Below are positions 55,891 through 57,670 of a DNA stretch of 64,000 nucleotides, one piece after another (position 1 is the first letter of the stretch; every line of letters begins with the position of its first letter). This DNA is from Octopus vulgaris (lineage: Eukaryota). A program made the translations under genes and the position numbers. The stretch spans positions 744,001 to 808,000 of the forward strand of contig OX597825.1 in assembly GCA_951406725.2 (NCBI GenBank), in the 5' to 3' direction. The notes under the pieces were generated by a model, which ran no database searches, was not told the origin of the DNA, and saw nothing but the letters and a program-made list of their open reading frames with translations.

Positions 55891-56227
55891 AATAACAGCA
55901 ATAATATAACAACCAGGTAAAGATGTGGATGAATAAATATAAACAAGTTACAAAATATTGGTATACCTGGCAAACCATGATGTTTAAGAGTATGTGGATT
56001 GGTTAAAAAGGTATTCAAAAAATTCAGCTGGTTGGAGAGTTCTAAGAGGTACTAAAGTTGTCAAGAACTCTCCTGTCAGTTAAATACATTTGAAATTTGA
56101 TGATTACACTATGTATGGAAGCATTAATTTTGTTAAAATACGATAATAAAAAAACATGAAAACCAGACTGTTTTAACTTTATTCAACTGATATATTATTC
56201 TACACACATTCACACACATTCAAAACA

Positions 56228-56680
56228 ATATATATATATATATATATATATATATATATATATATATATATATATATATATATATATATATATATATATA
56301 TATATGTATGTATGTATATATGTATGTATAAATGTACAAGTGGCTTTCAATATAGATGTTCAAGAAAACTCATAATATCTGTGTCTACATTAACAGTCTT
56401 TGAATGACACTTGAATAACTGGAAAAAAACAAAACAAACTTACAAAATGGTAGAAAGACTGAATGATATTGAGAATTATCTGAATCTGCAAACTTTGATT
56501 TACACATTTAAATAAACCCTATATATATATATATATATATATATATATATATATAGAGAGAGAGAGAGAGAGAGAGAGAGAGAGAGAGAGAGAGAGAGAG
56601 AGAGAGAGAGAGAGAGAGAGAGAGAGAGAGAGAGAGAGAGAGAGAGAGAGAGAGAGAGAGAGAGAGAGAGAGAGAGAGAG
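56228..56680. repeat. (TA)n and (TA)n(GA)n microsatellites
   Basis: Tracts at 56228-56310 and 56520-56680. Confidence 0.95.
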
Positions 56681-57067
56681 TTTGGTGGCCTATTGGATGT
56701 TATACATTGCTAGTTACAATGCACTTGATATCACTTTTTAGCTTCTGAATGATGGCATCCTGCTGGTTAGCGCAGTAGGCCAACATCCCCACCCTGATCA
56801 GAAGGCTGGTCCAATGCAGGGTCACTCATTCACAGCTGAGTGGACTGGAACAATGAGAAATGAAGTGTTTTGCTCAAGAACACAATGCACCACTCAGTCT
56901 GGGAATTGAACCCATGATCTAGCAATCATGAATGCAAAAACTTAACCAATGGGCCACATGCCTTTACATACATGCACACACACACACATGCATATATACA
57001 TATTAAAACATAATCATTGTTCATTATTTACATTCGACGGATATTTGTCCTCATCTTGTTTGTTGTT

Positions 57068-57113
57068 AACACAATATTTCGGCTGATATACCCTCCAGCC
57101 TTCATCAGGTGTC
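57068..57113 (-). ncRNA. Type-I hammerhead ribozyme (family A)
   Basis: rc GACAC CTGATGA aggctg gagggtatat cagcc GAAA tatt GTGTT. Confidence 0.78.
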
Positions 57114-57390
57114 TTGGGGAAATTTCGAACCTGGGTTCTCATTCCTAAGGTATTTTTTGATGTTGTTGTTATTATTATTATTATTATTATTGTTAGGTCA
57201 CTGCCTGGAATTGAACTCGAAACCTTGGGGATTAGTAGCCCGTGCTCTCAACCACTACACACATTCACACTAATTTGAAACAATATATATATATATATAG
57301 GGAGAATTCACAAAAAAAAACAAAAGATGAAGATGGGTGGTGTAGAAAACAAACAGATGTATTAGTATAATGCTTGGGAATTGAAAAACT

Positions 57391-57426
57391 CTTTAATGTT
57401 TCGAGCCTACGCTCTTCCACAGAAAG
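57391..57426 (-). ncRNA. Hammerhead-like motif (family E) in a secondary insertion at 57300-57475
   Basis: rc CTTT CTGTGGA a gagc-gtag-gctc GAAA catt AAAG; variant core. Confidence 0.6.
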
Positions 57427-57670
57427 AAACAAGGAGAGAAAAAAAAATGCGTGTAGTGGCTACTGATCTGTCATGTATATAAATGTTCAAGTGGCGTAGT
57501 GGTTAAGAGCATGGGCTACTAACCCTAAAATTCCGAGTTTGATTCCAGACAGTGATCTGAACAATAATAATAATGATAATAATAATAATAATAATAATAA
57601 TAATAATAATAATAATAATAACATTGTAAAATACCTTAGGAATGAGAACCCAGGTTCGAAATTACCCCAA

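Follow-up and report, generated by a model that had tools for sequence, protein, structure and literature searches.

How does DNA that belongs to neither half come to lie between the two halves of a single retroelement insertion? The question is raised by a locus at 57010-57816 of a 64,000-nucleotide stretch of Octopus vulgaris DNA (contig OX597825.1, positions 744,001 to 808,000; assembly GCA_951406725.2; hereafter the window), which lies in a 2.8-Gb, microsatellite-rich animal genome. The locus is one insertion (composite 2) in which two head-to-head arms form an inverted pair within a 12-bp target-site duplication (Table 1). Given that this single duplication encloses both arms as well as the spacer, both came in at a single target site. 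The junction of left arm and spacer (57215-57299) is spanned by a contig of another sample with two differences, and the right outer junction by contigs from three of four runs. The locus itself is a dead fossil, for which we suggest no host function.

Table 1. Coordinates of composite 2, its donor and the second composite of the same family in the window.
Feature	Position	Strand	Remarks
Donor segment	56200..56344	+	Unremarkable flank DNA with microsatellite; distance to the target site 665 bp
Left target-site duplication copy, 12 bp, ATAATCATTGTT	57010..57021	+	
Left arm: Penelope-like terminal repeat, short end, tRNA-like head trimmed at CTAC	57022..57258	-	
Left-arm hammerhead motif	57069..57112	-	Motif as in the intact copy that was folded; no Rfam match
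Captured copy, 5' part: CTAC microhomology, then donor sequence, (TA)n	57255..57299	+	
Truncated copy of a second, (TA)n-associated repeat family, hammerhead-like stem	57300..57475	-	Probably a later insertion
Captured copy, 3' part, TGGC microhomology at end	57476..57495	+	
Right arm: tRNA-like head, (AAT)n, hammerhead, long tail end	57492..57804	+	
Right-arm hammerhead motif: CTGATGA, stem II, GAAA	57672..57715	+	CpG-decayed
Right target-site duplication copy	57805..57816	+	
Composite 1: same family, head-to-head arms, 13-bp duplication ATGAAAACTGTAA	35540..36393	.	Outer coordinates approximate
Composite 1 spacer	about 35860-36168		
Composite 1 donor, copied inverted	34384..34709	-	843 bp from the element edge

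A preliminary description of this DNA had read the spacer (57255-57495) as a copy of nearby DNA, and its reading was confirmed down to the coordinates: the spacer matches the donor in direct orientation, starting with CTAC and ending with TGGC, and both tetranucleotides are common to the spacer ends and the element sequence at the two junctions. With 57300-57475 removed, spacer and donor can be aligned over their full length, the copy having about 80 bp less microsatellite, and they differ by five non-CpG substitutions over 68 aligned sites. The 665 bp between donor and target site hold a long microsatellite and a SINE-like repeat. Could the match be due to chance, or the flanks be a dispersed repeat? 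The left motif of the spacer (CTACACACATTCACAC, a gap of 5-10, AAACAATATATA) has exactly two matches genome-wide, at 56200 and at 57255, that is, only at donor and copy. For the right 18-mer, two matches with no more than two mismatches were found in the window (0.03 expected); across 301 fetched loci its only occurrences are in the two that overlap the 57010-57816 site. The uniqueness of the left motif and the rarity of the right 18-mer rule out both explanations.

The preliminary description had spoken of two tRNA heads; a reading of the arms as heads of a tRNA-derived SINE is not favoured here. In longer copies an open reading frame upstream of the tRNA-like head ends at the head, with its stop codon inside it, and the head continues directly from that stop; the arms are the ends of a Penelope-like retroelement, and the supposed tRNA head is the start of its terminal repeat. 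Many copies begin at, or just before, this head, in which ARAGORN and Rfam found no tRNA, and (AAT)n and a hammerhead motif follow downstream. In one long copy (L247) an open frame of 569 aa stops close to the head and gives a Pfam match to RVT_1 (E 2.7e-6; 27.7 bits, slightly below the 29.6 cut-off); the reverse-transcriptase frame is absent from the window's two composites. The C-terminus of the element (CVYSIP.SCG..Y.GET...EH-like) is a candidate GIY-YIG endonuclease; it had no match in Pfam or in the PDB. An intact copy has CTGATGA, a folding stem II and GAAAC, flanked by ACAC/GTGT. The terminal repeat thus carries what reads as a hammerhead motif, although Rfam returned no hammerhead match in it. 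In the right-arm head the box consensus places an A box at 57492-57502 and a decayed B box at about 57537-57546.

The assignment to Penelope-like elements is strengthened by the long and short ends, the inverted build and the target duplications, which are described marks of their insertions (PMC8557442, PMC3846280; these and the other papers are cited from excerpts). Shared with Penelope/Poseidon elements, according to the excerpts of PMC8557442, PMC3846280 and PMC11167929, are a reverse transcriptase followed by a putative C-terminal endonuclease-like region, a hammerhead in the terminal repeat, an inverted 5'-truncated copy, a 30-40 bp tail at one end, a palindrome at the inverted junction and a target duplication. 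Unlike the elements described in those excerpts, the octopus terminal repeat starts with a tRNA-like head. Family-wide (in the window at 57492-57563) the terminal repeat opens with tRNA-like A and B boxes that overlap the stop codon of the open reading frame, and a Pol III promoter within a Penelope repeat is possible. The long copy with the 569-codon frame (L247:3120-5649) is itself a 2.5-kb head-to-head copy; long copies have the same inverted build.

The stretch at 57300-57475, within the spacer, is a truncated copy of a second repeat family. Of 29 other top copies of this family, 26 carry TATATA no more than 25 nt from the corresponding end (background 4.8%), and this preference for (TA)n makes a later entry into the copied (TA)n likely. 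The later insertion that had been proposed is thus favoured indirectly: neither an allele without 57300-57475 nor an empty site of the whole composite was found in the contigs, where repeat depth swamps the tables and the result counts neither for nor against. The label of hammerhead family given to this insert could be kept only in part. It has a GAG-CGTAGG-CTC-GAAAC stem; however, the canonical hammerhead core is CUGAUGA, whereas 20 of the 29 motif matches of the second family read CTGTGGAAGAG before stem II, and Rfam matched nothing in the insert. The second family may derive from a hammerhead.

Is composite 2 a single accident, or does local capture recur? Composites were sought by an exact-pattern search for head-to-head pairs with long gaps, which gave 96 distinct loci with about 5 kb per side, made up of 47 of the 50 listed of 69 places in a first search and the places new to two further ones; together with the two window composites these make 98, of which 96 were paired automatically. 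Masking the element sequence left 30 non-element segments of at least 25 bp in 29 loci, the search being blind to fillers under about 25 bp. No such segment was present in 67 of the 96 sampled composites, in a sample already enriched for long spacers; since short gaps were left out, the capture rate among all composites is lower than here. Half of the segments (15/30) reach 50 bits or more against their own flank; from the flanks of other loci 1.64 would be expected. Among low-copy segments the figures are 12 of 25 against 0.15; composite 1 is counted in these 12, and composite 2 falls into the high-copy group because of its insert. Three loci that are two insertions or element-derived (L150, L199, L132) were kept among the 30, and the count is therefore conservative. 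Segments at L078, L079, L080, L108, L142 and L211 proved to be other parts of the element and were masked before the final count, while a candidate donor segment at L208 was rejected as element open reading frame. Automatic pairing failed at L193, which is outside the count, and at L147, where a donor at +328 bp was found by hand.

We then have a second set of 18 loci, picked on spacer previews with their flanks unseen and covered by 2.5 kb per side. Seven were set aside by eye: L287 consists of two insertions, and L288, L289, L293, L294, L297 and L299 have no foreign segment between two heads, or later AAT-run inserts. Of the 11 true foreign spacers, 7 have a local donor better than at any other locus; the misses are L285, L286, L290 and L291. 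Local capture, which the preliminary description had called systematic for the family, is better described as a recurrent minority event: it recurs genome-wide, with about half of the foreign spacers matching their own neighbourhood, and most sampled composites have no foreign segment at all. These counts also bear on a reading of composite 2 as two independent insertions around an old local duplication, or as chance similarity between simple repeats. Separate insertions with inner target duplications do exist (L150, L199 and L287, by eye), and the composite 2 donor is mostly microsatellite. Nonetheless, the single duplication around both arms and spacer, the left motif found genome-wide only at donor and copy, and the 12 local matches against 0.15 expected leave this reading with a negligible probability, and at the composite 2 locus we regard it, on the sequence, as effectively refuted.

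In all, 21 unique donors were collected, including those of L147 and of both window composites. Left out were L143, where the donor runs into a neighbouring element copy, and L212, a dispersed repeat. The donors are about 30-310 bp long (20 of 21 are under 250 bp; composite 1 has about 310 bp); 14 lie to the left and 7 to the right, and 16 were copied in direct and 5 in inverted orientation. The preliminary description was therefore right that the captured DNA is nearby, and its term upstream does not hold in general. A left-side bias of the first set was discarded, as it was not repeated in the second (3 left, 4 right). Donors lie 1-1410 bp from the element edge, 11 of them at 665-1410 bp and one within about 15 bp, in present-day distances that include later insertions (the value for L298, 178 bp, was set by hand, and L114 was measured from the head, its tail not being found). 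All 13 unique donors of the first set are within 1450 bp, though about 4.4 kb per side was searched; this nearness has a p of 5e-7 against a uniform and 0.02-0.05 against a 1/distance distribution, and no donor was found at 5-15 kb in the 10 loci tested. An apparent peak at 0.6-1.45 kb (8/13 in the first set, p 0.0003-0.001 against 1/distance) is weaker in the second set (3/7), and we therefore take the distances as a flat spread with a cut-off.

As about half of the foreign segments are without a local donor, other sources must exist. One non-local foreign filler is a fragment of a dispersed repeat, and several spacers hold the element's own 5' region. The spacers at L108:4865-5040 and L079:4793-5008 hold, in this order, element sequence from past the tail, an A-rich stretch and a new head, which looks like a jump of the reverse transcriptase from the RNA 5' end to the polyadenylated 3' end; if so, it marks both ends of the transcript. 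The 309-bp spacer at L093:4826-5134 is single-copy in the genome, and could be moved DNA, the copy of a deleted donor, or DNA between two separate insertions. The spacer of L143 (G000:C17:53775800-53785750) contains a 148-bp copy of DNA 3.7 kb distant and continues into the neighbouring element copy, from which one arm may have been copied. Outside its composite, L147 (L035:1178-2300) also has a partial third arm and flank DNA duplicated in inverted orientation.

The junctions carry further information. Fifteen cleanly scored junctions share 0-6 nt, with a mean of 3.3 nt against 1.05 in simulated joins. Tabulated across genomic copies, microhomology of at least 3 nt was present at 10 of 37 scorable junctions (p 0.012); 22 of the 37 scored negative, several of these by eye because of mutations beside the junction, and 5 of 42 were not scored at all. 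Composite 2 itself has 4 nt on the left, relative to the common sequence, and 4 nt on the right by eye; the automatic score of 6 at its left junction is due to a CpG-decay variant. Regarding age, donor and copy differ by 8.2% and the two arms by 6.9% when pooled over 20 loci (paired test, p 1.0), with 7.4% and 7.6%, respectively, at composite 2, and a weak correlation per locus (rho 0.29, p 0.21). The copying is thus about as old as the insertions of these old elements, and an early repair would fit these figures too.

Repair is indeed one alternative. A near-perfect palindrome could have been inserted and later have broken at its centre through hairpin or cruciform cleavage, after which host repair patched it with nearby DNA, stabilising the repeat. 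The fillers do lie at the palindrome centre, both heads of composite 2 are trimmed, and templated insertions flanked by microhomology are a known scar of host repair (excerpts of PMC11541566 and PMC8421209). Yet a later event should leave donor and copy less diverged than the arms, which they are not; many near-perfect palindromic composites persist unpatched, and fillers from elsewhere in the same element at the same junction point to reverse transcription. We consider this alternative unlikely.

The arms themselves help to see how the halves were joined. A duplication of at least 11 nt (11-20 bp) is present in 43 of the 66 composites with both ends intact, compared to 0-2 in five shuffled pairings, and 58 of the 66 pair one long with one short end, about 40 nt apart (p 9e-11). 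If one arm had been folded back from the other, one type of end should always reach deeper; the deeper arm is long-tailed in 7 and short-tailed in 5 composites (35 are similar, 11 were not scored), which argues against an arm copied from an arm. Arms of the same composite differ at a common (27%) variant in 6 of 38 cases. Shared variants amount to 0.92 within and 0.43 between composites, and this greater likeness within composites means that a shared template or gene conversion contributes. Since long ends pair with short ones and the arms are truncated independently on the inside, the two cDNAs seem to have been primed separately and then joined by microhomology, sometimes by way of a local template switch. 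This differs from the excerpted Penelope/Poseidon papers, in which head-to-head arms arise by self-priming on an antisense template; here the arm structure favours two primings.

Taking the copy, the duplication around it, the microhomologies, the recurrence and the range of distances together, composite 2 is a single Penelope-like head-to-head insertion whose filler was likely copied during the insertion itself, as one cDNA end switched to nearby chromosomal DNA and only then joined the other. More generally, the captured fillers likely record how the two half-copies of a jump are joined. The endonuclease would make a staggered cut of about 12 nt, and reverse transcription would be primed from both target 3' ends, with the long start site used by one and the short by the other. 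As a rule the two cDNAs would then pair by their ends, using the GCCC-AY-GGGC palindrome with which the terminal repeat opens or some fortuitous microhomology. Failing that, one of the ends might prime on 2-6 nt of homology in single-stranded flank, resected or unwound, up to about 1.5 kb away, be extended by about 30-310 nt and then anneal to the other cDNA. An end that snapped back on its own side would yield an inverted copy, and one that primed across the break a direct copy. At composite 2, the second repeat would have entered the copied (TA)n afterwards. The copying enzyme is likelier to be the element's own reverse transcriptase, which comes only slightly ahead of a host polymerase.

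Alternatively, the reverse transcriptase might have jumped to a nascent host transcript tethered at the site, so that the template was RNA rather than DNA. The enzyme does seem to jump between RNA segments, as in spacers that hold the 5' region of the element (once with an A-rich run and a new head), non-local foreign fillers occur, and fillers of 100-300 bp are long for Pol theta. Such a template gives no evident reason for a limit of about 1.4 kb on both sides, and at L284 a single donor contributed one piece in direct and one in inverted orientation to the spacer. Weighing these points, we think it quite improbable for the loci studied here, while noting that the sequence of a filler reads the same from a DNA or a nascent RNA template.

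Two target-primed cDNAs with free ends to be joined are the simplest reading of the arms. A purified Penelope-type protein cuts and extends both strands in vitro, with two start sites that match the tail, and is predicted to be a dimer (excerpts of PMC11167929). A bolder and tentative proposal, which we put forward as possible though not as the expected outcome, is that integration is obligately two-ended: a dimer would prime both strands at different RNA start sites, and a long-lived intermediate would keep about 1.5 kb of flank open per side as a bridging template for the element's reverse transcriptase. If true, the fillers are a genome-wide fossil map of this open intermediate, and the two-ended model replaces antisense self-priming as the origin of head-to-head arms. 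How Penelope-like integration is completed, and where the inverted structures come from, are stated as open in the excerpts of PMC8557442 and PMC11167929. The octopus insertions yield countable predictions: long and short ends should be strictly paired, the inner truncations of the arms independent, and the fillers drawn from within about 1.5 kb.

Comparable captures have been described in other systems. In rotifers, host DNA was captured between Penelope terminal repeats (PMC3846280); those captures lie, as far as the excerpt goes, between direct or solo repeats and are not traced to the neighbourhood, whereas the octopus fillers lie at the inner junction and were traced to within 1.4 kb. L1 insertions are also comparable: both target ends are extended and joined by microhomology, and stretches of nearby genomic DNA, mostly under 250 bp, end up copied in the insertion (10.1101/2024.08.27.596794, PMC11702581; both in excerpt). 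Such templated L1 insertions are rare, with 22 among about 3,600 in the former and three cases in the latter, and their donors are typically within 15 bp of the site in the main text, although supplementary figures may include farther ones; here this holds for 1 of 21. Host repair by Pol theta or MMBIR resembles our fillers in its priming and resolving microhomology of 2-3 nt or more and in its direct and inverted templates on either side (excerpts of PMC11541566 and PMC8421209). According to the same excerpts, a typical Pol-theta template is shorter than 10 bp and lies less than 20 bp from the break, in a search out to 500 bp, compared to about 30-310 bp and 1-1410 bp here, and the MMBIR tool searched only within 100 bp, while donors here reach 1.4 kb. 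Going by these figures, the local fillers of the octopus appear to reach far beyond published cases. The literature searched, outside subscription journals and supplements, held no description of local templated fillers in Penelope insertions, and a term search of a preprint on retrozymes as Penelope passengers returned neither tRNA, octopus nor template. The fillers offer a route for Penelope-like elements to pick up host DNA, and they create small local duplications in a repeat-rich animal genome.

Finally, the window holds several other repeats. A decayed coding-like stretch at about 54560-55900, split at about 55230-55466 by a SINE-like repeat, is by eye possibly another Penelope-like remnant. 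Two more near-perfect palindromes of about 300 bp, with 90-92% arm identity, lie at 42084-42391 and 53834-54132, the latter related to a repeat near 62230-62475 with a CTGATGA...GAAAC motif. At 60802-61718 there is an element with inverted ends of about 220 bp (86%) and a related copy at 6735-7295, which looks like a deleted DNA transposon.
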